Positions 40,227 through 57,979 of a DNA stretch of 59,311 nt are shown here, one piece after another. The notes under the pieces were generated by a model. The model did not search any database, was not told the DNA's origin, and was given only the letters and a program-made list of their open reading frames with translations. Each line of letters opens with the position of its first letter. Positions within the stretch are counted from its first letter, which is position 1. A program made the position numbers and the translations under genes. Origin of the DNA: Alphaproteobacteria bacterium (lineage in GTDB: Bacteria; Pseudomonadota; Alphaproteobacteria; Rickettsiales; UBA3002); contig JANNSK010000114.1 of the NCBI GenBank assembly GCA_031402515.1, forward strand, positions 1 to 59,311, read 5' to 3'.

Positions 40227-40285
40227 CTTCTTTGGGAATGGGTATGGTAGGGGATGAGTATGATTCATGTTTTGAGGAGATGAGA

Positions 40286-41517: not shown

Positions 41518-41628
41518 CGTCATGCCGGGCTTGACCCGGCACCCATCTTCTTAACAATAACTACTGAGTGTGTTTTTACTCCGTTGTTTTAAGAAGAAGA
41601 TGGACTCCGGCTCAAGGCCGGAATGACG
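41518..41628. repeat. Repeat family D, copy D2
   Basis: CGTCATGCCGGGCTTGACCCGGCACCCATCTTCTT ... AAGAAGATGGACTCCGGCTCAAGGCCGGAATGACG. Confidence 0.75.
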
Positions 41629-41697
41629 ATTCCTGAGGGATCCTTCGCGTTGCTCAGGATGACAACATGCTTTCCCCCACTTAACAAACAGGTTCCT

Positions 41698-42879
41698 ATG
41701 GCACACGCATTCTCGTGGCTGCACCGCATGGCGGCGCGGCAGGTTGAAAAGAAATATTTCCCTACCACCCATGCGTTCATGATTCCGGCGGGTCAGCCGG
41801 TCTGGATGCGTCGTGAGTTCACCAAGTTCGCCGAGGAAGGCTATAAGCGCAATGTGATCGCCCATCGCTGCATCACGATGCTGGCGACCGCGGCGGCGAG
41901 TGTGCCGTGGAAATTGTCCGAGCGCAGTGCGCGTGGTGCGACAAAGTTTCTGGAAACGCATCCGTTACTTGCACTGCTTAATCATCCGAATCCGCTGCAG
42001 GGCGGCACCGAATTCTGCGAAGCGGTCTATACGCAGCGGCTGATTGCGGGTAATGCGTTTATCCATGCGGTAGGGCCAGGCGATGCGGCGCCGCTCGAAT
42101 TGCACGTGCTGCGTCCGGATCGGGTGGCGATCATTCCGGGGCAGGGCGGGATTCCGAAAGCATACCGTTATACGATTGATACGCGCAGCGTTGATATTCT
42201 GGTCGATCCCATGACCGGCATAAGCCGCGTGCTGCATCTCAAAACATTTCATCCGCTCGACGATTGGTACGGGATGTCGCCGATGGAAGCGGCGGCGTAC
42301 AGTATCGACCAGCATAACCAGTGCGGCGCGTGGAACCAGGCGTTGCTGCAGAATGGCGCGCGGCCTTCGGGCGCCTTGATGGTGAAGTCCGGCGATGGGC
42401 AGGCGGGTGCGCTGACCGAGACGCAGTATACGCGACTAAAATCACAACTCGACGAGCAATTCTCCGGCGCGATTAATGCCGGGCGGCCATTGCTGCTCGA
42501 AGGTGGGCTTGAATGGAAAGAGATGAGTTTGAGTCCGCGCGATATGGATTTTATCGGGATCAAACATGCGAGCGCGCGCGACGTGGCGCTGGCGTTCGGT
42601 GTGCCGCCGCAACTGCTCGGTATTCCCGGCGATAATACGTTCTCCAACATGCAGGAAGCGCGCCTCGCGCTGTGGGAGCAGACGATTTTGCCGTTGCTCA
42701 CCTCGGTGACGGACGCGCTCAATAACTGGCTGGTACCCATGTTCGATGGGTATTTAACGTTGACACTTGATAGTGATGCAATTCCTGTGCTGGCGGCGAA
42801 ACGCGATGCGTATTGGGACCGCATCAGCAAAACGGATTTCCTGAGTGATGATGAGAAAAGAAAGTTGCTGGGTATCTGA
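41698..42879 (+). CDS. GTA/phage portal protein, HK97 family (RcGTA g3-like)
   Basis: In-frame ATG at 41698 (MAHAFSWLHRM); the ORF-track start at 41623 lies in repeat D2. 393 aa. Portal-typical PLLALLNHPNP...GNAF...MSPMEAA...GAINAGRPLLLEGGLEWK. Confidence 0.9.
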   Translation: MAHAFSWLHRMAARQVEKKYFPTTHAFMIPAGQPVWMRREFTKFAEEGYKRNVIAHRCITMLATAAASVPWKLSERSARGATKFLETHPLLALLNHPNPLQGGTEFCEAVYTQRLIAGNAFIHAVGPGDAAPLELHVLRPDRVAIIPGQGGIPKAYRYTIDTRSVDILVDPMTGISRVLHLKTFHPLDDWYGMSPMEAAAYSIDQHNQCGAWNQALLQNGARPSGALMVKSGDGQAGALTETQYTRLKSQLDEQFSGAINAGRPLLLEGGLEWKEMSLSPRDMDFIGIKHASARDVALAFGVPPQLLGIPGDNTFSNMQEARLALWEQTILPLLTSVTDALNNWLVPMFDGYLTLTLDSDAIPVLAAKRDAYWDRISKTDFLSDDEKRKLLGI

Positions 42880-43664
42880 TGCATAACAAATCACTCGCCG
42901 TGATCTGCGATAAGAGTACGGGTGTGCTTGAGTTAAAATCGCTTTCGGCGGACGGCCGTTTCGCCGGTTATGCCAGCGTGTTCGGCATGGTTGATGCGCA
43001 GCGCGATGTGGTGCATCGCGGCGCCTTTCGTCAGAGTTTAAAAACGCGTCCGGGCCCGTTGCAGCTGTTATGGCAACACCAGTGGCATGAACCGATTGGT
43101 ATCATCGACAGGATTTTCGAGGATGCGCGCGGGCTGTATGTCGAGGGCCGCTTGCTCATGGAAGTGGCGCGGGCGCGCGAAGCGTTGGCCCTGCTAAAAT
43201 CAGGCGTGATCAGGGGACTCAGTATCGGCTACACGGTGAAAAGCTTTCGCCGGAATCCCGATTCGGGCGTGCGTGAATTGCTTGAAATCGACTTGTGGGA
43301 AGTGAGTCTGGTGACGATGCCCGCCAACGCATCTGCACAGGTGACGATGGTAAAACGCACGGATGTTTTGCCGCAGAATATCATCGCGCTCGCATGGGCG
43401 ATGCAAGGCGCAATGCCTCCGCGCCTGACGGCGATGGGATCGAAAGCCGATGGGGCGCGGCGGCAGACATGGGAGTTACTGGAGGACATTGCCAACCACT
43501 GCTTTCTCTGGCGCAAGCAGGACGTGGAGAAAAGATTGCAGCAACTTAACGCAAAAAATCTAAGCAGCCGATTCATCCAAGGCGACGGCGCCGACACGGC
43601 CGCGATGGGTGCGGTTGAAGATGACGGTCGAAACGGTCCCGCGCGGTGGAAGCAGGGGCCCTAA
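42879..43664 (+). CDS. HK97-family prohead protease (RcGTA g4-like) with an unusual C-terminal extension of about 90 aa
   Basis: TGATG overlap with the portal stop. Protease core GYASVFGMVDAQRDVV..GAF...LLWQH...PIG...GLSIGY...EVSLVTMPAN. The extension overlaps a convergent ORF by 105 nt. Confidence 0.8.
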   Translation: MHNKSLAVICDKSTGVLELKSLSADGRFAGYASVFGMVDAQRDVVHRGAFRQSLKTRPGPLQLLWQHQWHEPIGIIDRIFEDARGLYVEGRLLMEVARAREALALLKSGVIRGLSIGYTVKSFRRNPDSGVRELLEIDLWEVSLVTMPANASAQVTMVKRTDVLPQNIIALAWAMQGAMPPRLTAMGSKADGARRQTWELLEDIANHCFLWRKQDVEKRLQQLNAKNLSSRFIQGDGADTAAMGAVEDDGRNGPARWKQGP

Positions 43665-44241: not shown

Positions 44242-45435
44242 ATGACTATTTCCGAAGTAACCGAACGCGTTCATGCATTGGGTAATGCGTGGGAGCAGCT
44301 AAAACAGGTGAATGATGCCAGGCTGAATGAAGTCGAGCATAAGGGCCATGCCGATCCGCTCTATCAGGAGCATATCCAGCGTATTAACGAGGCAATGGAT
44401 CAGCATGCCCGCCGCATGGACAAGATCGAAACCGTGCAGGGCCGACCGGCGCGTGAGATGAAAGCCCCGCTGATGGGCGCCGATGCATCCGAATACAAAA
44501 CGGCGTTTCGTAACTATCTGCGCAAAGGTATGGATGCAGGGCTGGAGCAGATCCAGCTGAAATCGCTCTCCGTCGGCACCGATGCCGATGGCGGATACTT
44601 TGTCACGCCGCAAATGGCGCAGACGATCGTGCAGATTGTCCATGAGTCGTCGCCATTGCGTGCGCTGGCTTCGGTTGAGACCATCTCCAGCGATTCACTC
44701 GATCTCATTGAGGATACGAACGATATGAGTGCTGCCTGGGTGGCCGAGACGGATGACCGTACCGACACCAATACCGCACAGATCAACAAGAACAGTATCG
44801 ACGCGTTCGAGATGTATGCGCAGCCGAAGGCGACGCAGAAACTCATCGATGACGCATCGATCGATATCGAGCAGTGGGTGGCGCAGAAAGTCGCCGACAG
44901 ATTCGCACGTCTGGAAGCGACCGCCTTCGTCAGCGGTAACGGCACCAGCCAACCGAAAGGTATCTTAAGCTACGCGGCGGGTACCAGCTTCGGCCAGATT
45001 GAGCAGATCAACTCCGGCACCAGTGCCGTGGTCACTGCCGATGGCCTCATCAAGCTCTATTACGGGCTGAAGGATGCCTATGCCAAGCGGGCGACGTTCC
45101 TGATGCATCGCACCACTGTGCAGGCGGTGCGATTGCTGAAAGAAGCGACGACCAACCAGTATCTCTGGCAACCCGGCCTTGCTGCCGGCACGCCCGATAC
45201 GCTGCTCGGCGTACCGGTCGCACTCGCCGCAGATATCCCCGTTCCGGCAGCGGATTCACTGTCGGTCGTGGTTGCCGATTTCAAACGCGCGTATTTGATT
45301 GTCGACCGCATCGGCGTGCGTATTCTGCGCGATCCGTTTACCGCCAAGCCGTTCGTGAAGTTCTACACGACGAAACGTGTTGGCGGTGAAGTGGTCAATA
45401 CGGAAGCCATCAAGCTGATGAAGCTGGCGGTTTAG
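44242..45435 (+). CDS. HK97-family major capsid protein (RcGTA g5-like)
   Basis: 397 aa. An N-terminal delta-like coiled region, then DADGGYFVTPQ...AWVAE...QKLIDD...LEATAFVSGNGTSQPKGIL, typical of the family. Confidence 0.9.
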   Translation: MTISEVTERVHALGNAWEQLKQVNDARLNEVEHKGHADPLYQEHIQRINEAMDQHARRMDKIETVQGRPAREMKAPLMGADASEYKTAFRNYLRKGMDAGLEQIQLKSLSVGTDADGGYFVTPQMAQTIVQIVHESSPLRALASVETISSDSLDLIEDTNDMSAAWVAETDDRTDTNTAQINKNSIDAFEMYAQPKATQKLIDDASIDIEQWVAQKVADRFARLEATAFVSGNGTSQPKGILSYAAGTSFGQIEQINSGTSAVVTADGLIKLYYGLKDAYAKRATFLMHRTTVQAVRLLKEATTNQYLWQPGLAAGTPDTLLGVPVALAADIPVPAADSLSVVVADFKRAYLIVDRIGVRILRDPFTAKPFVKFYTTKRVGGEVVNTEAIKLMKLAV

Positions 45436-45499: not shown

Positions 45500-45739
45500 G
45501 ACGCGAGGCTTAACGAGCGCGAGTGAGTTTAGCCGCAGCTGGGTGAGGGGGTTATTGACGACGGATACGAGATCAGTGTCCCCTGCGACTGTTTGTGCCC
45601 CCCTGTCCACCGGTTCGCGCTACGCGGTGATGAATTTTACCACAGAGAGCAAAAAATACGGCAAAATGCCTGAAACGCCAAGATGTTCGATTGACGCTGA
45701 CGGTTGAAATACTTATCCTTTACGCTCAGTGAGGCGCAT

Positions 45740-46081
45740 GTGAGCGACTTAAGCCGTTCGGATAAAATTCTGGCAGAGAAGACTGTCTGCGTACTGCTCG
45801 TGCGCGGCGAGGATCCCGACGGCAAGCCTATCTATGCCTATGTCGGCGTGCGTGCTGATAAGCTTGAGGAGTTCATGAAGGCGCAGGAGCAGGGGTTATT
45901 TTATCCCGAAGAGTTCGGCGTTGTGATTGAATCCGGCACGGGCGAGCCTCCGGCGGAAGTGCGCGTCAAAATGGAACGCGACTACGGATTTAACCATGAA
46001 GGTATGCTCGATATTCCTGACGCGCAGAACGCCACCAAGATTGCAGCGGAGCTCAGCCGCAAGGCGAATGATAAGGATTAG
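45740..46081 (+). CDS. Small hypothetical protein (113 aa), paralogue of 38368-38640, inserted between g5 and g6
   Basis: GTG at 45740 is preceded by GTGAGG and aligns N-terminally with the paralogue. Shared pattern ...G.P/W.YAYV/YYFV...F.K......EDFG/EEFG.V..S..GE.P.E....... (D/K)YGF/KFGF. A TTGACG-N17-TATCCT promoter-like element lies at 45691-45719. Confidence 0.6.
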   Translation: MSDLSRSDKILAEKTVCVLLVRGEDPDGKPIYAYVGVRADKLEEFMKAQEQGLFYPEEFGVVIESGTGEPPAEVRVKMERDYGFNHEGMLDIPDAQNATKIAAELSRKANDKD

Positions 46082-46110
46082 TTGTTGGTTGCTGGTTGTT
46101 GGTTGTTAGG
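46082..46110. repeat. 7-nt word repeats (TTGTTGG TTGCTGG TTGTTGG TTGTTAG) abutting a stop codon
   Basis: Starts right after the TAG at 46079-46081. A different word array (CTAGCAA CTAGCAC TAGCGAC TAGCAC TAGCAC) lies at 46256-46293 on the other side of repeat A4. Confidence 0.6.
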
Positions 46111-46115
46111 AAGAT

Positions 46116-46250
46116 GCCCTCACCCGAAATCGCCAGAGCGATTTCGCCCTCTCCCAAGGGAGAGGTAAACAAGTGGCACATCCTCTCCCCACGGCCACCT
46201 CTCCCTTGGGAGAGGTCGAAAATCATCCTTCATGATTTTCGGGTGAGGGC
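46116..46250. repeat. Repeat family A, copy A4
   Basis: Canonical arms and inner hairpins, further extended by AGGAAGAT / ATCTTCCT. Confidence 0.85.
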
Positions 46251-46433
46251 ATCTTCCTAGCAACTAGCACTAGCGACTAGCACTAGCACTCATCTTATGA
46301 CCCTCCATCTCTACCGTCCCGTACGCTGGTGGCGGCAGGGGGCAATGCTGCTTGATGCAGGGACCCATCACAATCTAACGCCGGAAGACGAAGCGCTGCT
46401 CATCGCGCTCCGCCTGGCTACGAAAATTCCACC

Positions 46434-46548
46434 CGTCATTCCAGCGCAAGCTGGAATCCACCTTCTTTTTAAAAAAGAAAGATGGATTCCCGATGAAGAC
46501 TTGCAACCAAACGCGATGCGTTTGGGCAAGCCTAGCTCGGGAATGACG
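46434..46548. repeat. Repeat family D, copy D3
   Basis: CGTCATTCCAGCGCAAGCTGGAATCCACCTTCTTT...GCCTAGCTCGGGAATGACG. The ORF track translates it as the spurious N-terminus of g6 (VIPAQAGIH). Confidence 0.75.
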
Positions 46549-46581
46549 ATTCCCTTTTGCTTCCCTTTTTGCGGAGAAACC

Positions 46582-47130
46582 ATGACCGACGATAACACGA
46601 CCCATCTGAAATTGATTACAGCACCTGCCAGCGAACCGCTGTCGGTGGCGGAAGCGAAATTATTTTTGCGCATCGAGCATACGGCAGATGATGCATTGGT
46701 CACGCGGGCGATCGCCGCGTCGCGCGAGGCGGCGGAGCAATATCTGCGCAGCGCGCTGTTGCCGCAAATCTGGGAATATACGGTGGCGAATCCCTATCGC
46801 TGCGAAGTCCGGCTGCCATTCGGCCCGGCGCAATCCATCACCAGTATTGTGGCCACGGATAGCGCAGGCGAGGAAAATACGCTGGATAGCGATACGTACA
46901 AGCTGAGCGTTGATGGCAGCATGGTGCTGTTTGTGAATACGCCGTCGTCGGAGAAAATCGCGATACGCTATAGCGCGTCCGTGGCCTCCGATGCGGCGAC
47001 GCTTCCGGCGTTGATCAAGCAAGGGATGTTACATCACATCGCGGCGATGCTCGAGCAGCGTGAGGGCATCGTACCGCTGCCGATGCAATCCATCGCGTGT
47101 TACATGCCGTATCGGAAAATGTCGCTTTAG
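46582..47130 (+). CDS. Head-tail connector protein (phage gp6-like; RcGTA g6-like)
   Basis: GGAGAA Shine-Dalgarno motif then ATG at 46582 (MTDDNTTHLKL). LSVAEAKLFLRIEHTADDALVTRAIAASREAAEQY is typical of the gp6-like connector family. Confidence 0.8.
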   Translation: MTDDNTTHLKLITAPASEPLSVAEAKLFLRIEHTADDALVTRAIAASREAAEQYLRSALLPQIWEYTVANPYRCEVRLPFGPAQSITSIVATDSAGEENTLDSDTYKLSVDGSMVLFVNTPSSEKIAIRYSASVASDAATLPALIKQGMLHHIAAMLEQREGIVPLPMQSIACYMPYRKMSL

Positions 47131-47340: not shown

Positions 47341-47667
47341 ATGGATGCGATTTTAGCCTCGCGGTTGCGCGAGCGGATTACGCTTGAGCGACCTGAGCGC
47401 ACGGAAGATGACTATGGCGGTGGCGAGATCGCATGGACGGCAGTGGCGACGGTTTATGCCAGTATCAAGCCGATTATTGGCACGGCGCGTGAGATTGCCC
47501 GCGCCGATCAGGTGGTGGCGATTGCGGGTTATCGCATCACCATTCGCCTCCGTGACGATGTCGATGCCAGCATGCGGATTCTGTGGAAGTCGCGCATGTT
47601 GATGATTCATTCGCTGCATGAAAGCGCGACGACACTTGAAATTTTAGCCTACGAGGAGATGGCATGA
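47341..47667 (+). CDS. Head-tail adaptor (SPP1 gp16-type; RcGTA g7-like)
   Basis: 108 aa. LRERITLERP....DDYGG....W..VATVYASIKP...RE pattern. Confidence 0.8.
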   Translation: MDAILASRLRERITLERPERTEDDYGGGEIAWTAVATVYASIKPIIGTAREIARADQVVAIAGYRITIRLRDDVDASMRILWKSRMLMIHSLHESATTLEILAYEEMA

Positions 47668-48068
47668 GCACGCTCGCATTGAACAGCGTCCAGCAGGGGC
47701 TTTACAGCAAACTGATCGGCGACGGTGTGCTCATGGATATGATTGCCGGCGTGTTCGACGCGGTGCCTGAGCGCACGGCAATGCCCTATATCATCATCGG
47801 CGATGGGGTGGCGAAGGAAGCGGCGGCACTCGAAAGCGCCAGCGTGCAATGCGAACTCGTCATCGATGTATGGACGGATGCGGCAGGCCGCAAAACCGCG
47901 CTGACAATTATGAATCGGATTTATGGGCTACTGCATCAAGGGACGCTCAGCCTATCCGGCTTTGAAGTGATCCTGATGCGCTGCGAGGAAGCGGCGACCC
48001 GGCTGGAACCCGATGGGCCGCATATGCGGGGGGAGATGCTTTTTAGTGCGCTGGTAAGGGTGGTGTAA
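47664..48068 (+). CDS. DUF3168-type GTA protein (RcGTA g8-like)
   Basis: ATGA overlap with g7. 134 aa. VQQGLYSKLIGDGVLMDMIAGVFDAVPE...PYIIIGD is typical of this family (from memory). Confidence 0.75.
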   Translation: MSTLALNSVQQGLYSKLIGDGVLMDMIAGVFDAVPERTAMPYIIIGDGVAKEAAALESASVQCELVIDVWTDAAGRKTALTIMNRIYGLLHQGTLSLSGFEVILMRCEEAATRLEPDGPHMRGEMLFSALVRVV

Positions 48069-48254
48069 GCCGACAGCCAACAGCCGACAGCCGACAGCCA
48101 ACAGCCGACAGCCGACAGCCGACAGCCGACAGCCAACAGCCGACAGCCTACAGCCGACAGCCAACAACCAACAACCAACAACCAACCAACCAACCAACCA
48201 ACCAACCAACCAACCAACCAACAGATTCTTAGCTGTAAGCTGTGGGCTGTAGGC
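48069..48254. repeat. Expanded 7-nt word array: about 14 GCC(G/A/T)ACA units, then ACCAACA units, then about ten CCAA units, then the inverted words AGCTGTA AGCTGTG GGCTGTA GGCT
   Basis: Starts at the first base after the g8 TAA and fills the gap between convergent genes. The distal words are complementary to the proximal heptamers. Confidence 0.85.
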
Positions 48255-48257
48255 TAA

Positions 48258-48824
48258 CTACTTCTTCTCTCTTATCGGTGAAAGCCGCGTATTGCGGCGC
48301 CAGACATCGATCTGGTAGGCCATGCGCTCGGTATCGACATCGCCGCAGCTGAGGCGGCCATAGACCATGGCATAACTTCCCTGCGTCGCTGCTGCGCGCT
48401 GACGGACGAGCGCGTCGGCTTCATGAATGTTTTTCGCCAGCTTCTTTACTTGCGCGTAGACGAGCAGCATTTGCCAGGTGTCGCTATATTCGTTGGGTTT
48501 CATTTTCTTGCATTTCACCAGCAGGTAACTGTTGAGCAGGATATTGTCGATCTGCTCCACCGCCTCGCTTTGATGCCGCTGGGCCGCGCTCAGTCGTGCA
48601 CCGGGGCTGAATAGTTCGATAATGGGATTGTTGGTGGTTTGCGACGGCCATGGGGCTTCAGAAGGCGGCGGTGTTACGGGAAGCGGCACGGCCGACGGCG
48701 ATACCATCGATATGGCGATAAACAATAGCGTGACCAGCCCCGCCATGCCGACAAGCGGCCAGCGGTAACCGGGAGGAATGCGCTGGCGCGCTTCCTTAAG
48801 GAGCTGGCGGAGTAGCGTTTTCAT
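48258..48824 (-). CDS. Hypothetical single-pass membrane protein
   Basis: In-frame ATG at 48824 (MKTLLRQLL...WPLVGMAGLVTLLFIAISMV). It overlaps the upstream gene's 3' end by 29 nt; alternative start at 48746. Confidence 0.5.
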   Translation of the reverse strand: MKTLLRQLLKEARQRIPPGYRWPLVGMAGLVTLLFIAISMVSPSAVPLPVTPPPSEAPWPSQTTNNPIIELFSPGARLSAAQRHQSEAVEQIDNILLNSYLLVKCKKMKPNEYSDTWQMLLVYAQVKKLAKNIHEADALVRQRAAATQGSYAMVYGRLSCGDVDTERMAYQIDVWRRNTRLSPIREKK

Positions 48825-49296
48825 GGCAATCGATGGTGATGTTTTCACCCTGGTTGATGGTGTGGGTCCATAAGCGGTCGTAAGCGAAGCAGCGATAACC
48901 AATGACCAGTTGCTTAAAGCAGGAGGCAAGCGGTTCGATTTTCAGCTCCTCGCTGGTGACGTAAAAGGTGCAGTCGAGTTTGCCGTTGCAGCGCGCGCCG
49001 AGTACGCTCAGCACATTATCGGAATTGATACGCGGCAGCGGTTTTAATGACGCGTCCGCGGTATCGTTTGCCACTTTCTGTTGGAGGCGCAACTGCTGGC
49101 GATTCAGGTTTTCCTGCTCGATGAAGCTGTTGCAGTTCTCGCCCCAGCTGGCGGTGTAAATTTGGATAAAGCGGTCGCCGGCGACTTGGCTGGGGCCCGG
49201 TGGCGGCTTATTGGGGTCGATGATCACGTAGAGCACCACAATCAAGGCGCAGATGATGGTGAGCGCCATCGCATGAAATTTCCAATTGTGCCGCAT
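48796..49296 (-). CDS. Membrane-anchored protein with a SUEL/rhamnose-binding-lectin-like Cys pattern
   Basis: N-terminal helix AMALTIICALIVVLYVI. Then IQIYTASWGENC...LGARCNGKLDCTFYVTSEELKIEPLASCFKQLVIGYRC, which resembles the Gal_Lectin signature (A.YG...C ... C.G...C......DPC.G..K.L.V.Y.C). Confidence 0.55.
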   Translation of the reverse strand: MRHNWKFHAMALTIICALIVVLYVIIDPNKPPPGPSQVAGDRFIQIYTASWGENCNSFIEQENLNRQQLRLQQKVANDTADASLKPLPRINSDNVLSVLGARCNGKLDCTFYVTSEELKIEPLASCFKQLVIGYRCFAYDRLWTHTINQGENITIDCHENATPPAP

Positions 49297-49396
49297 TGAT
49301 TGCCCCGGTTGAGTGAGGAATAGCTAACCTGAGGAATCTCGGGCGTCAATGGAATGCAGTAGTCTGATGGCGGGTGGCGGACTGAACGGCCAATGC

Positions 49397-50422
49397 TTAT
49401 TGAATACTGAAGGTGTTGCCCAGATCAGTCTTGGGCTTGTTGTTGGTATTCAAGACCAGTTTTTTATCGACGGGTGGTGTTGCGGCGGCGGGTGGTGTGC
49501 CTTCGACTGCCTCGCCGCCGGTTACAACTTTCGGGAGTGGGTTATCCAGCGCAGTGGCTTTGGATGGGTCGGGCGGCGTGGTGTCGGCTTGGGTGGTTTT
49601 TTTGCGTTCGGCCGCTGCTTGAAGATATGCGTTGAGTTCTCCTCCTGCCGCGGCAAGCATATCATGACCAGCGGAGTCTTTTCCTGACACCATTTCGCGC
49701 AGGGTAAAGGCGTTAGTGGCGTCATCCGGCGACCCTTTACGTACCGCTTCTTTCAGCATGCCGAAGATACCGGTAAGCGATGCATCTGGACGATCCCACA
49801 TATTCGAAAGCAAGCCTTTCCATTGGCTGCTCGCCAATGTTTTTTGTTCAATGCCGACAATTGATGCGGCGGCTTTTTGAGCGATGATAGCACGCTGGCT
49901 ATCATCAAGATCGTCGCCATGCTTGGCGGCAAGTGCATCCGAGAGACTGACTACTAAGTTATCATAGATGGCCTTGGCAGTAACGATGGCGGATTTTGGA
50001 TCCTTGTCCATTGACTTAAAGCCGATATATTCTTTGATAGCTGTGTTACAAATCTCTTGCAGGCCAACGGTGACTTCTTTGGGTAATTGGAGTGCGTTGG
50101 TGAGTTCTTCAAAACCAGAAAAACCTTTGATTTTGGATAACAGCTCTTGTTTTGCGTGTGCCGTCGCCTGGAAAATAACGCCGAAGATGCTGCCTACGAT
50201 CCAATCGTAAATACCCTGCAATACAGCCGCGAAGCCACTTACATATTCGCCAATGATGGGGATCTTGGAAAGTTTGAATCCCCATAGCTCGTACGCTTCT
50301 GCTTGTTCGGCGATGGTGGATGTGGCGCTTTGTATACTATCTGCAAGATCGCCGCCGCCCATACTTCTGACAGTATCGGTGACGATTGACAGGGGATTTA
50401 TCGCTGCAACTGCTGTGCCCAT
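49397..50422 (-). CDS. Hypothetical protein (341 aa), no Sec leader
   Basis: GAGGAAAT Shine-Dalgarno motif. Looks AT-richer than its flanks by eye. Hydrophobic stretch IPIIGEYVSGFAAVLQGIYDWIVGSIFGVIF. Confidence 0.65.
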   Translation of the reverse strand: MGTAVAAINPLSIVTDTVRSMGGGDLADSIQSATSTIAEQAEAYELWGFKLSKIPIIGEYVSGFAAVLQGIYDWIVGSIFGVIFQATAHAKQELLSKIKGFSGFEELTNALQLPKEVTVGLQEICNTAIKEYIGFKSMDKDPKSAIVTAKAIYDNLVVSLSDALAAKHGDDLDDSQRAIIAQKAAASIVGIEQKTLASSQWKGLLSNMWDRPDASLTGIFGMLKEAVRKGSPDDATNAFTLREMVSGKDSAGHDMLAAAGGELNAYLQAAAERKKTTQADTTPPDPSKATALDNPLPKVVTGGEAVEGTPPAAATPPVDKKLVLNTNNKPKTDLGNTFSIQ

Positions 50423-50463
50423 ATTTCCTCATCTCCATCATAGCAAAAGGGAGGGGCTTTGAA

Positions 50464-50480
50464 TGTGAAGATTTGATGAC
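50464..50480 (-). promoter_or_regulatory. Tandem-hexamer box GTCATCaaatcTTCACA (read on the minus strand)
   Basis: Followed 19 nt later by GCTATGAT. About 42 nt upstream of the start at 50422. Confidence 0.55.
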
Positions 50481-50488
50481 GATTTTTA

Positions 50489-50634
50489 GCTCCCCCCTTG
50501 CGGGGGAGCGGGATTTTCTCTTGCAACGCCGTGGGGCGATGGGCATACGAAATTACCCCCCACGCAACACGCGTCGCTAAAGCTAGCGTGTTGCCGCTCC
50601 CCCTCAAGGGGGGAGCTAGGCCCCGTGCTCACGG
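50489..50634. repeat. Repeat family B, copy B5
   Basis: Sits between the two divergent boxes at 50464 and 50643. Confidence 0.85.
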
Positions 50635-50642
50635 CCAAAACC

Positions 50643-50659
50643 TTCACGCAATTGTCACA
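50643..50659 (+). promoter_or_regulatory. Tandem-hexamer box TTCACGcaattGTCACA
   Basis: Followed 18 nt later by GCTATAAT (50678-50685). ATG at 50708. Confidence 0.6.
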
Positions 50660-50707
50660 CTTTTCAGCGCTTTTTCAGCTATAATTTAGGGTGAAGGATA
50701 GTGTCTG

Positions 50708-51982
50708 ATGGATAGAATGAGACCACATGGTTTTGACGTTGCACGTGACGGGCCGTTGCGCTTCGATGGCGATGATGCGCGCGGGAGTGACGCGCCCGAT
50801 GCGCAGGATGCGCGCGGCGGTGACGACAAGCCGATACGCATATTCAATATCATCGAAGTCAGTCCGCAAATCGTCGCCTACCTGCAGGCGGGCTACAACG
50901 TCATCTCGGATTTCGCGACGAAATTCGTCGCGCAGCCGGTCTATGACGGCACGGTTTTACTCGCGCAGCGGATGGGTATCAAAGACATCAAGCGCGCGCG
51001 TGGACTGGCGGCGGCGACCACTTTTGCTGTTGATACGACGATAAAATCCGCCGGTTATGTGGCGCCATGGTTGGGCTCGGCCCGGGGGCATCGTAAGCAA
51101 CTGAACGCGCTGGCGCGTACATTGGCGCCGGTGCTCGACGAGTTAAAGGGCGGTCATGCGTTGGTGAATCTGCATGCGGTCGGCATCAACGATAACGAAA
51201 TGATTTACGCCCAGCGGCGTAGGCTTGCCGAGGAAGCGCGGATGAGCAATGTGTCGAACGTCATCGACCTGATTATCAATGCCGGTCCCAACGTGTGGTT
51301 CAGCGCGCAACAGCTTCATCGCATGGCATACAGCAACCTGTCGCCGCGCGAACTTGCCCTCAAGGAACATGCCGACGCGCTGAAATCGGAAGGTAATCCG
51401 CGCTGGGAATTCAGGGATGCGAAGGAAACCATCGTCAACACCGCGACGGCTGGTATCGCTGATTACGTGAAGAATCTGCAGACCAAGGCGCTGGAGAAAA
51501 CACGCCAGCATTACTCGGCGATGGAGATGATCCTAGCCCTCGATGAACAGCTTAACAAGCATCCAGGAGCGACGACGATTCGGGCGCCGGGCAAGGATGG
51601 CGACCTGTTCACGCTGGAGAAATATGTGGCGCGGATTATTACCCAGCATCAGCGGGATATGGCGGATATCAGCCCGGCCCATACGGAAATCCGCAATGCG
51701 CTGAAGGAAGATTTGGTGGTGCTCGTGAAGCCTATTGCTGAATCGATCCATAAGGGCAAACTGAGCCCGCTGACGCTGGTGCGCTGGGTCGGCGAAGGCA
51801 AGCTGGTCAAGGATAAGGGCAGGGCGCTGGCGAGCCTTTCCGAAGTTCAGGGTTTGCTGGGGCAGCAGGCGGCGCCTCACGTTCCGGCGATAACCAGCCA
51901 AACTCAGGCGATTAACCGCCTTGGCGGCGAACGGGCGCATCTCGGCACCCTGCACAGCGTTGAACGGGCTTTGAATACGTAA
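50708..51982 (+). CDS. Hypothetical protein (424 aa), no Sec leader
   Basis: GAAGGA Shine-Dalgarno motif. Arg/Asp-rich N-terminus. No family recognised. Confidence 0.65.
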   Translation: MDRMRPHGFDVARDGPLRFDGDDARGSDAPDAQDARGGDDKPIRIFNIIEVSPQIVAYLQAGYNVISDFATKFVAQPVYDGTVLLAQRMGIKDIKRARGLAAATTFAVDTTIKSAGYVAPWLGSARGHRKQLNALARTLAPVLDELKGGHALVNLHAVGINDNEMIYAQRRRLAEEARMSNVSNVIDLIINAGPNVWFSAQQLHRMAYSNLSPRELALKEHADALKSEGNPRWEFRDAKETIVNTATAGIADYVKNLQTKALEKTRQHYSAMEMILALDEQLNKHPGATTIRAPGKDGDLFTLEKYVARIITQHQRDMADISPAHTEIRNALKEDLVVLVKPIAESIHKGKLSPLTLVRWVGEGKLVKDKGRALASLSEVQGLLGQQAAPHVPAITSQTQAINRLGGERAHLGTLHSVERALNT

Positions 51983-52009
51983 GGAATTCAGCGTGTTCAT
52001 AAGTGGAAT

Positions 52010-52026
52010 GTCACACAATCTTCACA
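52010..52026 (+). promoter_or_regulatory. Tandem-hexamer box GTCACAcaatcTTCACA
   Basis: Identical 17-mer to the first two hexamers of the box at 16393. GGTACTCT lies 19 nt downstream. ATG at 52071. Confidence 0.6.
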
Positions 52027-52070
52027 CTAAAAACCCCCGATTTTTGGTACTCTAGAGGCTGGAGTACTCT

Positions 52071-53825
52071 ATGGACCAACAAGGTTTTACAGCAGGAGGC
52101 GTTGGCAGCGTCAGCGAGCCATTGGCCGCTATACCGCGCATGCCCGTTGTGCGCACGGCGAGTAAGACGCCCGTCAAAACGAATGGAACGGGTAAGCCGC
52201 AGGCAGGGATGCCGCCGGTCAATACTGGCAGTACACCGACGATTGGATTTCTCAATAGCTTCAAAAATGCGACCGAACCAATGTGGCTTGTACAGTTTTT
52301 AGGTCTCTTGATGATACCGGTCGCGTGGAGTTTAGATCGTGTCGGGTTAAAAAGCGCGGCCAATGGATTACGCGGTTGGATCATCGCGCCGACCAATGCG
52401 TTGATGAATACCCGCGTCAGGGATGGATTCCATCTGCGTGCCAATGCGGTGGATGAAGCAGCCAAAATCATGCGTAATGTTGGCGGCGATACGGCCACAA
52501 AAGCTTCAGCGTTGGAAACACGATCGGTCGTCCTGCACGGAGCAGCGGCGGAGAGCGGAAAAAAATGGAGCACGTGGTTTGAACCAGCGCGCAAATGGTT
52601 CGGCGATGCGATTGACAATTTCAGCAAAAGTGGTTTTGGAAAATGGGTCGAAGCGCGGGTGAAGGGATTCACCGATTGGCGCATTAACCGTCATGGGCCG
52701 AAAGTTGGCGGCGCTATCGATATGGCGATTGATAGTATCAAGGCTTCCCCGACCGATGTGCAGGCGAAACTTGCGGGCGTACTCACGGATCTGCAGGCGG
52801 CCAAAGGTTTGACGGGCACTACACAAGCGGCCGCACTGGCGAAAGCGGAAGGCCAGATTGGACATATCGTAAAGGGTGTAGAAGGCGCGGGCGCGCAAGC
52901 TGTGCATACGGTCGGTGATCTGGTGAAGACAGCGAAATGGTCGGCGGAAACGCTGGTGAGTCATACGACGGCTGCTGCATCAGGGTTGCGGGCGATGACG
53001 AAGAATCTGCTGCGCAGCGCAGGCAATATCCCGATTTTCTTTGCGGTGGTTGGTGCCGGTGCATTGGCGGGTGCAGCAATGTATGGTCTGAAAGCGCGCC
53101 AAGATAATAAGATCGCGCGCCAAAGCCTCAAAGATATGGCGGCGGATATTGGCGATGCAAAGCATCCGATGATGATTGCGGCATCCAAGATGGCAAAGAA
53201 ACAAAGCAGCGGTCGTTGGATGAGTGCTGGCCTGACGGGCGTTGGGGAAGGCCTCGTGGCCACGCCGATGGGGATGGGGGTAGGGCCGGGGGCAGGCAAG
53301 ATGGGAATGATCGCGTTGGGTGCGGGTTTCCTGCCGAATCTTAGCCAATTACTGGTTCCGGAGAATCATTTGCTCAACGCCTATGCGACGTTGAAGCAAA
53401 ACGAACAGGGGAAAATTACTCTGCCGCCGGAACATAAAATCGACATGGTGCGCCATCTGGTCGCGGCGGTGCCAGCGGTGAATAAGCAGGGCGGCGTGGA
53501 TAATAGATTGTCGCGACCCATCGCAACGGAAATTGTGAAGCGCAATCTGTCGGTGAAGCAAACATTGCAGCTTCTGGCTAATCCGGAGCAGTTCACCGCG
53601 CTCACGAGCGAAGTCGCTGCGGCGCAGAAAAAGATTATCGAGGAAGCTGCCGCGCAGAAAAAAGCCAATGAAGAAACCGCAACACAAAAGCCGGGTGAGG
53701 TGGCAGCGACGCCGCCTGTTCCGGCGAAGCCAAAAACGGAGACGCCATCGCTGACGATTAATGCTGCAACCACCAGCAACGAAGGTCGCCTCGCTGACAT
53801 CCAGCGCGCGATGGGGCAGGTGTAG
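52071..53825 (+). CDS. Hypothetical protein (584 aa) with internal glycine-rich hydrophobic segments
   Basis: GGAG lies 6 nt before the ATG. Hydrophobic segments NIPIFFAVVGAGALAGAAMYGL and GLVATPMGMGVGPGAGKMGMIALGAGFL. Repeated AAQKK motif near the C-terminus. Confidence 0.7.
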   Translation: MDQQGFTAGGVGSVSEPLAAIPRMPVVRTASKTPVKTNGTGKPQAGMPPVNTGSTPTIGFLNSFKNATEPMWLVQFLGLLMIPVAWSLDRVGLKSAANGLRGWIIAPTNALMNTRVRDGFHLRANAVDEAAKIMRNVGGDTATKASALETRSVVLHGAAAESGKKWSTWFEPARKWFGDAIDNFSKSGFGKWVEARVKGFTDWRINRHGPKVGGAIDMAIDSIKASPTDVQAKLAGVLTDLQAAKGLTGTTQAAALAKAEGQIGHIVKGVEGAGAQAVHTVGDLVKTAKWSAETLVSHTTAAASGLRAMTKNLLRSAGNIPIFFAVVGAGALAGAAMYGLKARQDNKIARQSLKDMAADIGDAKHPMMIAASKMAKKQSSGRWMSAGLTGVGEGLVATPMGMGVGPGAGKMGMIALGAGFLPNLSQLLVPENHLLNAYATLKQNEQGKITLPPEHKIDMVRHLVAAVPAVNKQGGVDNRLSRPIATEIVKRNLSVKQTLQLLANPEQFTALTSEVAAAQKKIIEEAAAQKKANEETATQKPGEVAATPPVPAKPKTETPSLTINAATTSNEGRLADIQRAMGQV

Positions 53826-53826
53826 T

Positions 53827-54687
53827 ATGGCAGGAACTCCCAGAGTTGCACCAACACCCATAACGCGAAAAGTCAGCGGTTTTAGTAATACGTTATTCTG
53901 GGGATCGATCGGTGTAGCAATTGCGATCCCGATTTTTGGACCAATGCTTTCGCACTTCGTCGATCGTTGGCGCAATCGGCATGATACGAATAATGAACTG
54001 AGAACGCGTGCTGACTGGTATCGGTTTCAGGTGGCCAAGCAGCTTGGGATGAATCCGGCGGATGTGACGCAACGCGATTTGCTGCGCGCGGCGGAACTCA
54101 ATCCGCAACTCGCGCGGTCGGTGAAGGAAGTGTATAATAAAGAGGGCGACAATAACCGCTTCTCGCTGCTGACGATGGCGGGTGCAAGCTTAGTGCCTGT
54201 TGCCGGCGGCGGAATCAAAGCGATGGCGATGACGATGGGCGGTGCGATTGGCGGCGGAACGCTGGCGTCGTTGATGACGAAGTCGCGCGTTGATCCGCAG
54301 GATGTGATTGAGGTGATTAACGCGCAGGTGATGGCCGGACGTGGCGCGCGTAATGCAGTGTCGCCGCAGCTGGTATTCATGCTGCGTGTGGCGCAGAATG
54401 ATGCGTTGGGAAAACAGATTTCACAGATGTATGGCAAGGCGTTTCATACAATGACGGAGGCTGAACAAACGGGCGTGATGCAGGCCTATCCTCAGCTTGC
54501 CAGTGCCTGTGCCTCGGAAGCCTATGCGGTATCGACCGGCGTCATGCAGGTGCAGGAGCTGATGGCGGCGCCGCCGAATATGAACAGTATGGCGGCGAGA
54601 TATGCGCCGTCGCCGCGCAGTCAGTCGTTCGTGGCGCAGCTTGAAACCGACCGTGCCAAGCAGGTGGCGAATACGCCAAGCGTTTAG
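53827..54687 (+). CDS. Hypothetical protein (286 aa) with bilobed hydrophobic segments
   Basis: The ATG lies 1 nt after the upstream stop, suggesting an operon. Hydrophobic segments LFWGSIGVAIAIPIFGPML and LLTMAGASLVPVAGGGIKAMAMTMGGAIGGGTLASLM. Confidence 0.65.
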   Translation: MAGTPRVAPTPITRKVSGFSNTLFWGSIGVAIAIPIFGPMLSHFVDRWRNRHDTNNELRTRADWYRFQVAKQLGMNPADVTQRDLLRAAELNPQLARSVKEVYNKEGDNNRFSLLTMAGASLVPVAGGGIKAMAMTMGGAIGGGTLASLMTKSRVDPQDVIEVINAQVMAGRGARNAVSPQLVFMLRVAQNDALGKQISQMYGKAFHTMTEAEQTGVMQAYPQLASACASEAYAVSTGVMQVQELMAAPPNMNSMAARYAPSPRSQSFVAQLETDRAKQVANTPSV

Positions 54688-54763
54688 TTGCTGGTTGTTA
54701 GTTGTTGGTTGTTAGTCGCACCTCCAATTAACCAACAACTAACAACCAGCAACCAACAACGCA
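54688..54763. terminator. Hairpin with a 24-bp perfect stem made of 7-nt words (GTTGCTG GTTGTTA GTTGTTG GTT / inverted)
   Basis: Starts at the first base after the TAG at 54685-54687. Loop about 13 nt. The ORF track translates it as a false N-terminus of g12. Confidence 0.7.
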
Positions 54764-54795: not shown

Positions 54796-55395
54796 ATGGG
54801 ATTTGTCGAGGACAGATTTCCTTCCGATATCAGCTATGGATCATCAGGCGGGCCTGAATATGCGACGGATGTTGTGATCAGCGGCAGCGGCCACGAGCAG
54901 CGCAACATCAACTGGAGTCAGGCGCGGGCACGGTACAATGTTGCGCATGGGGTGAAAACGAAAGCGCAGCTTGATGCGCTCATCGCGTTTTTCCGTGCGC
55001 GCAAAGGCCGCGCCTACGGATTTCGCTTCAAGGACTGGACGGATTTCAGAGCGACTGACGCGGTCATTGGCACGGGTAACGGCAGCGCCACGCAATTTCA
55101 GCTGGTGAAAAAATATACGAGCGGCGGGGTAGATGAATCGCGCATGATTACCAAACCAGTGGTCGGTACGGTGAAGATTTACAAGGACGCCGTGCTGCAA
55201 TCGAGCGGGGTGAGTGTATCGACCACAACCGGTGTGGTGACATTGGGCGTAGGGCCCGCCAATGGCGTCGTCATCACCGCCGATTTCGAGTTCGATGTGC
55301 CGGTCCGCTTCGATACCGACCGTTTATCGGCAACGCTTGACGCGTATGGCGTCCATTCGTGGCAGGATATCCCACTGATTGAGGTGCGTATATAA
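54796..55395 (+). CDS. DUF2460/TIGR02217-type GTA protein (RcGTA g12-like)
   Basis: In-frame ATG at 54796. MGFVEDRFPSDISYGSSGGPEY....V...SG.EQRN..WS.AR..Y......K....L..L..FF.AR.GR..GFRFKDW.D is characteristic. Confidence 0.85.
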   Translation: MGFVEDRFPSDISYGSSGGPEYATDVVISGSGHEQRNINWSQARARYNVAHGVKTKAQLDALIAFFRARKGRAYGFRFKDWTDFRATDAVIGTGNGSATQFQLVKKYTSGGVDESRMITKPVVGTVKIYKDAVLQSSGVSVSTTTGVVTLGVGPANGVVITADFEFDVPVRFDTDRLSATLDAYGVHSWQDIPLIEVRI

Positions 55396-55607: not shown

Positions 55608-56459
55608 ATGCAGTCTATATCTGAATCACTGGCAACGCACCTCAATCAAGAAGTGACGACACTGGCGACATGCTGGAAAATCATGCGTGCGGATGGTGTG
55701 GCCTATTATTATACCGATCATGATCGCGACCTGGTGATTGAGGGTGACAGCTATAAAGCGGCGAGTTTGATGAGCCCGTCGGCGGTGACGTCGCAGCTTA
55801 ATCTGGCGACGGATAATCTGGAGCTTGAAGGGATGCTGACGGATGATGGCTTGGGCGAGGATGATATTCTTAGCGGCAAATTCGATCACGCCAGGATCAC
55901 GATTTTCATCGTCAATTATGCGGATATTGTTGCCGGGAAACTCGCACTCAAGCATGGGTTGCTTGGCGAAGTGAGTTTAAAGAACGGCATGTTCGTCGCC
56001 GAGATTAGGGGGCTTTCCTCGGTGCTGCAACAAACCATCGGTGAAGTATATACGCCGAGCTGCCGCGCCAAATTGGGTGATGGGCGTTGCGGCGTGGGTC
56101 TCGCATCTTTTACCGTGAGCGGCACCATTACGGCGGTGGAAGGTGCCCATGCGTTTAGCGATTCAGCGCGCATGGAGGATCATCATTACTTTGCCTATGG
56201 GATTATTTCCTTCACCAGCGGTGACAATACGGGGTTGAGCATGGAGATCCGTGAGTTTTTCTCCAGCCGATTTAGTCTGTTCCTACCCATGCCGCATGCG
56301 GTGCAAGTGGGTGATGCCTATACGGCAGTTGCTGGATGCGACAAGCGTTTTGACACATGTATCGCGCGGTTTTCCAATGCGATAAATTTCCGTGGCGAAC
56401 CGCACGTTCCCGGCACGGATAAGATGATGCAGACGGCGGCAACGCGCACGGACTTCTAA
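55608..56459 (+). CDS. DUF2163 plus BR0599-type GTA protein (RcGTA g13-like)
   Basis: 283 aa. TLATCWKIMRADGVAYYYTDHDRDLVIEGDSYKA and the C-terminal GCDKRFDTCIARFSNAINFRGEPHVPG are signature-like. Confidence 0.85.
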   Translation: MQSISESLATHLNQEVTTLATCWKIMRADGVAYYYTDHDRDLVIEGDSYKAASLMSPSAVTSQLNLATDNLELEGMLTDDGLGEDDILSGKFDHARITIFIVNYADIVAGKLALKHGLLGEVSLKNGMFVAEIRGLSSVLQQTIGEVYTPSCRAKLGDGRCGVGLASFTVSGTITAVEGAHAFSDSARMEDHHYFAYGIISFTSGDNTGLSMEIREFFSSRFSLFLPMPHAVQVGDAYTAVAGCDKRFDTCIARFSNAINFRGEPHVPGTDKMMQTAATRTDF

Positions 56460-56683: not shown

Positions 56684-57103
56684 ATGAGCGGTTTTGATAA
56701 CAAGCAACGTAAACGCAGCCCTGAGGGGTTGCCCTCGCCAGAGGTATTGGAGGCGTATGATGCGGTGCTTGCCGGTTCGGCGACGCGGATTATCGATATG
56801 TTCGAACGCGAGCAGGCGCATCGCCATACGTGGGAACATCGCGCCTTGCGTATTCATCAGGTTTCGACGGTGCTCGGACAGTTTCTGGGATTCATGATCG
56901 CGGTGGCGATTTTTGTGTCGGCTACCATTATCGGTATGTCAGGCAATGCGAGCGTTGCCGCTTTCATCTGGGTGTTCGGTATGGCGATTGTCACCATGGC
57001 GGCGGTCATCTGGTGGTATGCAAAAAGTCTTGGCCAGCGGCCGTTATTCGCCCGGCCTGCGATGCGTAGTTCGTTCCGGCCGGAAAAAGAATCCAACGAA
57101 TAG
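56684..57103 (+). CDS. DUF2335-like membrane protein inserted between g13 and g14
   Basis: 139 aa. LPSPEVLEAYDAVLAGSATRIIDMFEREQAHRHTWEH followed by two transmembrane helices matches my memory of DUF2335. Confidence 0.6.
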   Translation: MSGFDNKQRKRSPEGLPSPEVLEAYDAVLAGSATRIIDMFEREQAHRHTWEHRALRIHQVSTVLGQFLGFMIAVAIFVSATIIGMSGNASVAAFIWVFGMAIVTMAAVIWWYAKSLGQRPLFARPAMRSSFRPEKESNE

Positions 57104-57127: not shown

Positions 57128-57574
57128 ATGACAACTCCGCACGACATCGTCGCGATTGCGCGCGGGCTGGTTGGCGTGCGGTTCGCGCATCAGGGACGCT
57201 GTCCTGACCAAGGGCTTGATTGTTTGGGATTCCTGTTGGCAGTGGCGCGCCAAGCGAAATTGATGCTGCGCGGGGTGTATCCGGAAACCTATGACCGTCG
57301 CGACTATGGCGCGCGGCCGGATACGGAATTTCTAGAGTGCCGGTTGAAGACATTGCTGACGCCAGTGACGCATATGGGCGTTGCCGATATTTTATTGCTG
57401 CGGGTGGATGGCCGCGCGCAGCATCTGGCCATGGTCAGCGACTATCCGGAGCCTGACGCATGGGGCATCATTCATGCCTACGCGCCCGCGCGAAAAGTGG
57501 TTGAACATCGGCTGGATAGGTGGTGGCAGTCGGCGATTGCCGGAATTTACCGATTGCCTTGTGTATTAGAATGA
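57128..57574 (+). CDS. NlpC/P60-family phage cell-wall peptidase (RcGTA g14-like)
   Basis: 148 aa. IARGLVGVRFAHQGRCPDQGLDCLGFLL (catalytic Cys context) and a later HLAMV..., as in the TIGR02219-type family. Confidence 0.85.
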   Translation: MTTPHDIVAIARGLVGVRFAHQGRCPDQGLDCLGFLLAVARQAKLMLRGVYPETYDRRDYGARPDTEFLECRLKTLLTPVTHMGVADILLLRVDGRAQHLAMVSDYPEPDAWGIIHAYAPARKVVEHRLDRWWQSAIAGIYRLPCVLE

Positions 57575-57897: not shown

Positions 57898-57914
57898 CGT
57901 TACGATTGTGTGAC
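57898..57914 (-). promoter_or_regulatory. Tandem-hexamer box GTCACAcaatcGTAACG (read on the minus strand)
   Basis: Followed 18 nt later by GCTATACT. About 33 nt upstream of the start at 57865. Confidence 0.55.
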
Positions 57915-57979
57915 ATTTCCCGCACTGCAACCGGCACCCATTGTGCCATCATGCAACGCAATAAACAGGAGCAGTCCGG

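Follow-up and report, generated by a model that had tools for sequence, protein, structure and literature searches.

The window discussed here is a whole 59-kb stretch of DNA (59,311 nucleotides; GC 56%) on one contig, JANNSK010000114.1, of an alphaproteobacterium. According to Pfam, PHROGs and the translations, its right-hand 20 kb hold a head-tail cluster of the type known from the gene transfer agent (GTA) of Rhodobacter capsulatus, RcGTA: genes g2-g8 are collinear, a block of six genes follows, and then come g12-g15. RcGTA has g9, g10, g10.1 and g11 at the place of the block. An earlier note, made from the sequence of the window, had listed six open reading frames (ORFs) between g8 and g12, and all six are present. 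Three of them point leftward (L3, L2 and L1) and three rightward (R1, R2 and R3); they are the window copy of an ancient, vertically inherited, lineage-specific module that occurs clade-wide, here called the L/R module, and not diverged forms of g9-g11. The interval contains the following features.

47664-48068, + strand: g8, tail completion/terminator gene, the last head-neck gene before the block (PF11367, 1.1e-19)
48068-48256, intergenic, between g8 and L3: heptamer tandem repeat (AGCCGAC/AGCCAAC, about 17 copies), (CCAA)x16 and an inverted arm
48258-48824, - strand: L3, with an N-terminal membrane anchor, a linker rich in Pro and, at the C-terminus, a conserved domain of about 110 aa that includes two conserved Cys
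48796-49296, - strand: L2, with an N-terminal membrane anchor and a SUEL-type (rhamnose/galactose-binding lectin-like) domain with six invariant Cys
49397-50422, - strand: L1, 341 aa, which opens the leftward operon and belongs to the variable LB family (108-341 aa)
50437-50481, - strand: L1 promoter box CGTCATCAAATCTTCACA, 21 nt, with a -10 element TATGAT ending 14 nt before the ATG
50487-50618, L/R divergent spacer: REP-like (repetitive extragenic palindromic) elements, including a 66-nt element
50642-50685, + strand: R1 promoter box, type B CTTCACGCAATTGTCACAC, with a -10 element TATAAT at 50680 and a conserved GGTGAAGGA leader
50708-51982, + strand: R1, 424 aa, soluble, predicted elongated helical bundle
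52009-52053, + strand: R2 promoter box, type A TGTCACACAATCTTCACAC, 20 nt, with a -10 element TACTCT
52071-53825, + strand: R2, helical, with a central transmembrane (TM) helix at about residues 317-340, a Gly-rich hydrophobic stretch and a conserved C-terminal domain
53827-54687, + strand: R3, with an N-terminal TM helix, helical domains and a Gly-rich hydrophobic stretch; start 1 nt after the R2 stop
54684-54760, between R3 and g12: inverted repeat with a 27-bp stem of heptamer repeats, at the position of the relatives' terminator
54796-55395, + strand: g12, distal tail protein (DUF2460), with which the baseplate genes begin (PF09343, 1.8e-76; true ATG at 54796)

Relatives were collected by a g12 scan with one genome per species, which gave 80 loci, the best matches having 64-77% identity; the related metagenome-assembled genomes are labelled Rickettsiales, Azospirillum or Alphaproteobacteria. 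As determined by tblastn and ORF clustering, roughly 35 of the 80 g12-seeded loci share one g8-g12 arrangement, which usually consists of g9 on the + strand, the leftward genes L3-L2-LA-LB, the rightward genes R1 and R2 (about 600 aa each) and R3 (about 300 aa), and then g12. Overall, the L/R module lies between g8/g9 and g12 in about 45 related loci. Contigs encoding R3 homologues have the same layout, as do all eight loci from a metagenome scan seeded with R1, and the seven of these with flanks all show a GTA cluster with the same gene order; a scan of IMG/VR for R1 relatives gave none. Five of the six ORFs have full-length syntenic homologues in many loci, and because these align over their full length with motifs and cysteines conserved, they are real genes under constraint. 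The block had at first been regarded as a peculiarity of this locus, a view that the finding of the same block in relatives, as a standard lineage-specific GTA component, was expected to overturn; this is what the junction comparison gave.

The closest relative of the window is locus L088 (90% identity in g3, 81% in g12 and 45% in R1), and its layout is that of the window: g8 converges directly on L3, g9 and LA are missing, and R3 starts one base past the stop codon of R2. The window copy is a trimmed module, from which LA is absent; specific to the window are the shortened R1, the enlarged L1/LB and the heptamer repeat/hairpin between g8 and L3. Throughout the clade, g12 identity is 64-81% and that of R1 only 27-45%, while order, position and orientation are strictly kept.

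No recognizable tail-tube, chaperone or tape-measure gene occurs among the six, as the earlier note had maintained. Searches of Pfam, PHROGs, NCBIfam and PADLOC produced no informative match for five of the six proteins, L2 alone matching SUEL_Lectin, and PDB profile searches with R1, R2 and R3 gave no match. Comparison by hhalign of all seven families with local profiles for g9 and the long tape-measure protein (TMP), built from fetched loci, was negative. More specifically, none of the six ORFs matches the tail tube (about 135 aa, PF06199), the hhalign probability against the g9 profile being at most 0.6%; against the long-TMP profile it is at most 0.5%, and no TMP family of Pfam or PHROGs was matched. 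No chaperone pair (tail assembly chaperone, TAC, genes) precedes the R genes in the window. What is TMP-like is the position, R2 and R3 lying directly upstream of g12, together with the all-helical model of R3 and the hydrophobic segments. The best viral match in Foldseek had an E value of 0.058, and no annotated TMP was reached below an E of about 1, so that the profile and fold check proposed earlier, run for all seven families by hhalign and for R1 and R3 by Foldseek, revealed no tail fold. The one hint from hhalign, that R1 and LB are faintly alike at their N-termini (E 1.4e-3, probability 18%), was not built upon. An anti-phage defence system was also considered and rejected, as no PADLOC model matched any of the six proteins.

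The missing genes, g9 (PF06199), g10/g10.1 (PF11836, PF09550) and g11, are not found between g8 and g12 in the window. A tblastn search of the window with seven clade g9 proteins reached a best E value of 0.14, and a six-frame HMM/phmmer scan of all stop-to-stop fragments of the 59 kb with g9, g10, g10.1, g11 and long-TMP profiles gave E > 0.4 in all cases. Two positive controls are available: locus L050, in which g9, g10 and g10.1 have clear Pfam matches and are accompanied by a g11-like ORF without one, and the g9 proteins of the clade itself, which Pfam detects. Where it is present in the clade, g9 keeps its canonical place after g8 (L003, L004, L005, L011, L014, L018, L032, L084, L086 and L087, with a g9-like ORF in L020), and it matches Phage_tail_2 at 1e-9 to 6e-5, compared with 8e-38 for the canonical g9 of L050. 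It is lacking in the window and in L081/82/91, L088, L089, L092 and L094, that is, in at least five contigs besides the window, and the repeat/hairpin at 48068-48256 fills the site that g9 has in the 11 other clade loci. None of the module-bearing loci examined has g10, g10.1 or g11.

Because the module and g9 coexist in 11 loci, the module as such fills the g10-g11 slot, and g9 loss is a recurrent event separate from it. In a rough g12+g13 tree (midpoint-rooted neighbor joining without support values, which does not resolve a single origin of the module), the window and L081/82 fall in different sub-clades, each of which also contains g9-bearing loci; this implies that g9 was lost more than once. 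The tail of RcGTA is built from a stopper, a terminator, five tube rings, a distal tail protein and a 216-aa tape-measure trimer (PMC7296036). GTAs of Rickettsiales/Holosporaceae keep the head and likewise the distal tail, the hub and the megatron, their tube genes being undetected (PMC9254644), and the tail state of the present clade fits this published pattern. Three readings had been offered at the outset, a tail-less or defective GTA, tail genes moved elsewhere, and a novel module on a conserved baseplate. With g9 weakly conserved and repeatedly lost, a tail-less or reduced state is now favored for the tube, and a replacement module on the conserved baseplate is possible.

The g8-g12 interval is a hypervariable spot across the whole g12 lineage. 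In L016, g8 directly abuts g12 and the interval is empty (8538-8568); L038, L040 and L043 have two leftward membrane genes there, and L024, L025, L036 and L046 have other orphan sets. Among the other branches of the g12 clade, L050 (7009-9246) alone keeps g9, g10, g10.1 and a g11-like gene.

Among the rightward proteins, R1 has suffered an in-frame internal loss of about 200 aa in the window: it has 424 aa, whereas almost all members of its family, which comprises 116 clusters, have 570-740 aa. Structure comparison covered the predicted models of R1 and R3 only. The AlphaFold2 model of R1, based on 57 homologues, has a mean pLDDT of 84.5 and a pTM of 0.75, and consists of four helices of 34-46 residues and a small C-terminal sub-domain. 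None of its Foldseek neighbors is significant (best E 0.3 in the PDB and 0.058 in BFVD), and R1 is confidently modeled as a new helical-bundle fold. An α-helical pore-forming toxin of the ClyA/XaxAB type was tried as an identity for R1 and rejected, ClyA and XaxB being reached only at Foldseek E values of 1.2-3.3 and TM scores of 0.10-0.18; also discarded as spurious was a tblastn match of the R1 C-terminal domain at 36.2-36.8 kb (E 0.003), which crosses a stop codon. R2 has no match in Pfam, PHROG or PDB, and two word-indexed homology searches returned the query only, its low-complexity sequence having probably swamped the candidates. The R3 model is all-helical, with a pLDDT of 65.5, and has no fold neighbor in Foldseek. 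The Gly-rich hydrophobic segments described earlier in the 584-aa (R2) and 286-aa (R3) proteins are present in both.

On the leftward side, L2 is the protein with the clearest affinity. All nine aligned members of its family match PF02140 (best E 1.3e-8), although the window copy itself scores 23 bits, under the 31.4-bit cut-off, and the family profile reaches 1.3e-18 with the rhamnose-binding lectin 5h4s and about 1e-7 with CSL2/CSL3. The profile match, the Cys framework and the motif ...P..C.K.L.V.Y.C are those of SUEL lectins. L2 is therefore, as judged from its sequence, a membrane-anchored SUEL-type lectin with predicted sugar binding, in line with the first description of this ORF as lectin-like with an anchor, and the N-terminal anchor would place the lectin domain in the periplasm. 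Homologues of L3 were found by tblastn in seven of the first 80 loci, and syntenic ORFs were also aligned in L005 and others; hydropathy bears out the single-pass membrane anchor assigned to it before. L1 occupies the position that LB has in all relatives; it matches L014 at E 1e-5, and its central domain is common to L003 and L014. The earlier idea that it is leaderless or has a short leader fits, the -10 element ending 14 nt before the ATG, but as a member of the LB family it is no orphan in the strict sense. LB appears to share its transcript with L2 and L3. Of the six window proteins, four (L3, L2, R2 and R3) have hydrophobic membrane segments; L1 and R1 have none.

The promoter boxes have a core of two 11-nt-phased repeats, TGTCA[C/T] and CTTCA[C/T], at the usual -35 location. 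Type A reads TTGTCA(C/T)-AAAAG-CTTCA(C/T)AC, and the order of the repeats is inverted before R1; the box sequence, TTGTCACAAAAGCTTCACAC, is a candidate regulator-binding site. An extended -10 element (TTTGCTATTCT, TATAGT) lies about 21 nt past the repeats, and the distance from the -10 to the start codon is 6-30 nt. For several R2, R3 and LB genes of relatives it is 6 nt, so several transcripts should be leaderless. The strict core occurs seven times in the window, compared with 0.14 copies expected and at most two in any of 200 shuffles. All seven copies are intergenic and correctly oriented; three stand before R1, R2 and the 390-aa gene inserted between g2 and g3, and the other four before orphan genes at 16-35 kb. 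Degenerate copies are found before L1, an RTX-repeat gene (30.5-31.6 kb), an ORF at 4.2 kb and the leftward lipoprotein gene that separates g14 from g15.

The boxes are also kept before the homologous genes of relatives, that of LB in L003, L004, L011, L014, L018, L032, L084, L086, L088, L089 and L092, that of R1 in 17 other loci and that of R2 in 19 other loci; the boxes originally spotted at about 50470, 50650 and 52010 are thus real. The window and 86 loci, 1.33 Mb in all, contain 113 strict boxes, of which 20 have R2 downstream, 18 R1, 18 R3 and at least six LB, and none of the 113 stands directly before a GTA core gene (g2-g9 or g12-g15). R3 has its own box in most relatives, whereas in the window it follows the R2 stop by 1 nt. 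A consensus sigma-70 scan found sites no more often than expected by chance and none at the boxes; the box promoters have no -35 element. L1/LB, R1, R2 and, in relatives, R3 are shown to carry a conserved promoter of the activator type, the activity of which is predicted; that L1, R1 and R2 each have such a box argues, as had been proposed, against ordinary structural tail genes. Beyond the block, box-driven orphans include ORFs of 359, 531 (PG_binding_1), 418 and 650 aa and the RTX-repeat protein, and the whole set looks like a regulon of uncharacterized secreted or envelope proteins. Boxed cassettes are also wedged in at the g2-g3 and g14-g15 junctions.

At the other end of the rightward genes, relatives have a canonical Rho-independent terminator 20-45 nt before g12 (L003, L004, L011, L018, L081 and L084). 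Own promoter, own terminator and insertion between genes that are adjacent in related clusters (g8 and g12 in L016) are the marks of a moron-type cassette, and the block has them, with the hairpin in place of the terminator in the window. The divergent spacer contains one further element, a 66-nt double hairpin found at 50548-50618 (upstream of the R1 box) and, in the same orientation and with one mismatch, at 38686-38752 (upstream of g2); the window has no third copy, and none of the 86 loci has the element. Its candidacy as a common GTA regulatory site was dropped because relatives lack it, and it was treated as a genome-specific REP-like repeat; it may be a repeat of the REP or MITE (miniature inverted-repeat transposable element) kind or a genome-specific regulatory element. 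Hairpins of heptamer repeats (AGCCGAC/AGCCAAC/AACCAAC and complements) recur in the spacers of the GTA cluster, at 48068-48256, 37435-37502, 46081-46129 and 54684-54760. The Rfam Whalefall-1 RNA motif (RF01762) has six matches above the gathering score, arranged as three intergenic inverted pairs (1106-1239, 8830-8966 and 46116-46250), one of which sits between a 125-aa gene and g6; these matches probably correspond to the CCTCTCCC...GGGAGAGG palindromic repeat family.

The genes that flank the block, and the remaining boxes of the window, are as follows.

38722-40194: terminase, g2 (Pfam)
41623-42879: portal, g3 (Pfam)
42879-43664: S78 protease, g4 (Pfam)
44242-45435: capsid, g5 (Pfam)
46297-47130: connector, g6 (Pfam)
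47341-47667: head completion, g7 (Pfam)
55608-56459: hub, g13 (Pfam hub domains)
57128-57574: g14 (minor-tail PHROG 329)
57983 to beyond the window end: g15 (read from the translation)
16392-16409, 19228-19245, 22485-22513, 31707-31724, 34690-34729, 4102-4122, 40206-40227 and 57898-57917: other boxes

In the region 38368-38793, there is no g1-like gene upstream of g2, the start region of which is adjoined by a leftward ORF; about 130 nt, mostly palindromic element, are left for a head-operon promoter. The 125-aa gene between capsid g5 and g6 (45704-46081) has neither an RcGTA counterpart nor a Pfam family. Few genes of the cluster are as well conserved in nearer relatives, where its identity is about 72-86%; in more distant loci it is 35-59%. 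The g6 protein has an N-terminal extension of about 110 aa that relatives keep. A DUF2335 membrane protein (PHROG 3996, category 'moron') is encoded at 56684-57103, inserted between g13 and g14, and most of the approximately 30 loci carrying this gene keep it at that junction, with 59-84% identity. Every relative covering the g2-g3 junction has a box-driven inserted gene there, but the gene differs: in the window it encodes an NTPase_I-T-domain protein (390 aa, 40232-41404), in L089 a 307-aa protein (850-1773), and in L090 (1136-1603) and L092 (4747-5229) a TM protein of about 155-160 aa. This junction is therefore a second hot spot for cassettes, with turnover, compared with which the L/R module is stable.

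The preferred explanation, held tentatively and with somewhat less than even confidence, is that the block consists of envelope cassettes of a moron-like kind, linked to the baseplate half of a GTA whose tail tube is being lost. A response regulator of the OmpR/PhoB family (two-component) would switch the cassettes on independently of the GTA late genes, and the module proteins would act at the cell envelope in concert with the invariably linked baseplate genes, their likeliest role being control of the passage of GTA particles or DNA through the envelope (exclusion, uptake or release). Meanwhile, the tail would be in the process of losing its tube and tape-measure part. The function is placed with the baseplate half because the module never leaves the g12 side, whereas the g2-g3 junction swaps its cassettes. 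The L operon and the head operon run toward each other with no terminator between them, so that expression of the L genes may exclude GTA production and vice versa, and anti-termination would let late transcription cross the module; internal terminators and anti-termination are documented for the Caulobacter GTA (PMC11150451). Several points weigh against this explanation. The topology of L2, L3, R2 and R3 is read from hydropathy alone, only two of 23 other box-driven proteins have a Pfam domain (PG_binding_1 and a GDSL lipase), none of the 23 has a Pho-regulon domain, and the regulator is named by analogy, from the architecture of the box. The link of the module to GTA biology is its position alone, and operon-trapped genes can persist without a related function. 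In addition, no promoter for g12-g15 other than the R-block boxes was identified, so the baseplate genes may be read from the R boxes, in which case the R genes may be ordinary co-expressed tail-module genes.

That last possibility leads to the proposal that R1-R3 are non-homologous substitutes for the tape measure and chaperones, that is, membrane-active inner-tail or ejection proteins carried in the particle, which would be released via the baseplate and bridge the recipient envelope, by analogy with the ejection proteins of short-tailed phages, so that a siphovirus-like GTA would become short or tube-less. In every locus, R1-R3 lie exactly in the TMP slot and on the same strand as g12-g15, and the module and recognizable TAC/TMP genes are mutually exclusive among loci; R2 and R3 are helical, have Gly-rich hydrophobic segments and, like TMPs, evolve fast, the R boxes may feed g12-g15, for which another promoter was not seen, and g9 can go while R1-R3 and g12-g15 stay intact. 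Yet each gene has an activator-type promoter of its own, of a kind that non-GTA orphans have too, a terminator separates R3 from g12, and the strong hydrophobic anchors of R2 and R3 point to the inner membrane of the producer, not to a tail lumen. In addition, a frameshift signal and a chaperone pair are lacking, neither profiles nor folds showed any similarity to TMPs or other tail proteins (best viral Foldseek E 0.058; TMPs at E of about 1), and a total of about 1,500 aa is far above the need of a five-ring GTA tail, RcGTA g11 having 216 aa (PMC7296036). Substitution by R1-R3 is consequently regarded as rather unlikely. Pure hitch-hiking is unlikely too, if a serious candidate: the block would be made of host-regulon genes for secreted, surface or effector proteins, for example, for interaction with a eukaryotic host or prey, that sit in permissive junctions and have no GTA role. 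Consistent with such passengers, the same box drives the orphans outside the GTA cluster, 21 of the 23 further box-driven ORFs have no Pfam domain, as is typical of effector repertoires, other GTA junctions gather box cassettes as well, and the sequences diverge rapidly. Against passengers stands the strict keeping of position, order and orientation over a deep clade in which the g2-g3 cassettes turn over in the same genomes; R1-seeded searches also gave GTA-embedded copies only, with no R1 relative in IMG/VR.

The tube, chaperone and tape-measure genes might instead have moved elsewhere in the genome, the GTA being a normal siphovirus-like one and the module unrelated to the tail, a situation compatible with the other explanations. 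The analysis covers one 59-kb contig of the genome, and split GTA clusters have been described for Rickettsiales (PMC9254644), both of which leave room for relocation, but the 59 kb contain nothing g9-g11-like, g10 and g11 are missing from all loci with the module, and the clade g9, where kept, is at its canonical place and weakly conserved, which looks like decay; relocation therefore seems improbable. More speculative, and quite doubtful, is the idea that the L/R module is a new envelope-crossing apparatus that functionally replaces the tube and tape measure. If true, the particle would be a tube-less head-neck-baseplate structure delivering DNA (or possibly protein) via R1-R3 and the membrane-anchored L proteins, a dedicated two-component regulator would switch the apparatus on, and a domesticated phage would have been remodeled into a different delivery machine.

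That GTAs of this broad group have lost tube and TMP genes is already known, and recruitment of unknown genes has already been proposed; no description of the module, its families or its promoter box was found in the searchable literature. The locus gives concrete objects for the question of what replaces lost GTA tubes, namely seven protein families, including R1 with its predicted new fold. Further handles are the fixed place beside the baseplate genes, a sharply conserved box that marks a wider regulon, and natural variants with and without the tube gene. It is now testable whether these GTAs are tube-less, whether the unknown genes are particle components, envelope gatekeepers or passengers, and which regulator is involved.

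Compared with the g9-g10-g10.1-g11 tail module of RcGTA, the block occupies the same slot between g8 and g12, and the flanking genes are clear homologues. The block itself has no sequence, profile or fold similarity to that module, is larger (about 6.6 kb versus about 1.7 kb), has three of its six genes on the opposite strand, with own promoters for L1, R1 and R2, and encodes hydrophobic membrane segments in four of its six products. The reduced-tail GTAs of Rickettsiales/Holosporaceae, for which recruitment of unrelated genes was raised as a possibility, are similar in that both keep capsid/portal and distal-tail/hub/megatron genes, have no detected tube and include unknown genes in the cluster (PMC9254644). 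Unlike them, the cluster described here is contiguous, its replacement genes are conserved families with a common promoter box, and its genome is not AT-rich or obviously reduced (56% GC). The boxes resemble promoters of the PHO-box/OmpR/PhoB type in their 11-nt-phased direct repeats, TGTCA[C/T] or (G/C)TTCAC, at the -35 location (PMC4415409). An identity as a PHO box was not retained, as none of the box-driven ORFs examined has a Pho-regulon domain (pst/pho/ugp-type phosphate genes), and the resemblance is architectural only.

Phage morons offer the other comparison, HK97 gp15 being a superinfection-exclusion moron inside a tail operon. Like morons, the L/R genes form cassettes with own promoter and terminator between otherwise adjacent genes, and they encode membrane proteins whose expression is expected to be independent of the late operon. 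Unlike morons, they make up an ancient, clade-fixed module of seven genes and two operons that resides in a GTA rather than in a prophage, and their function is a predicted one.

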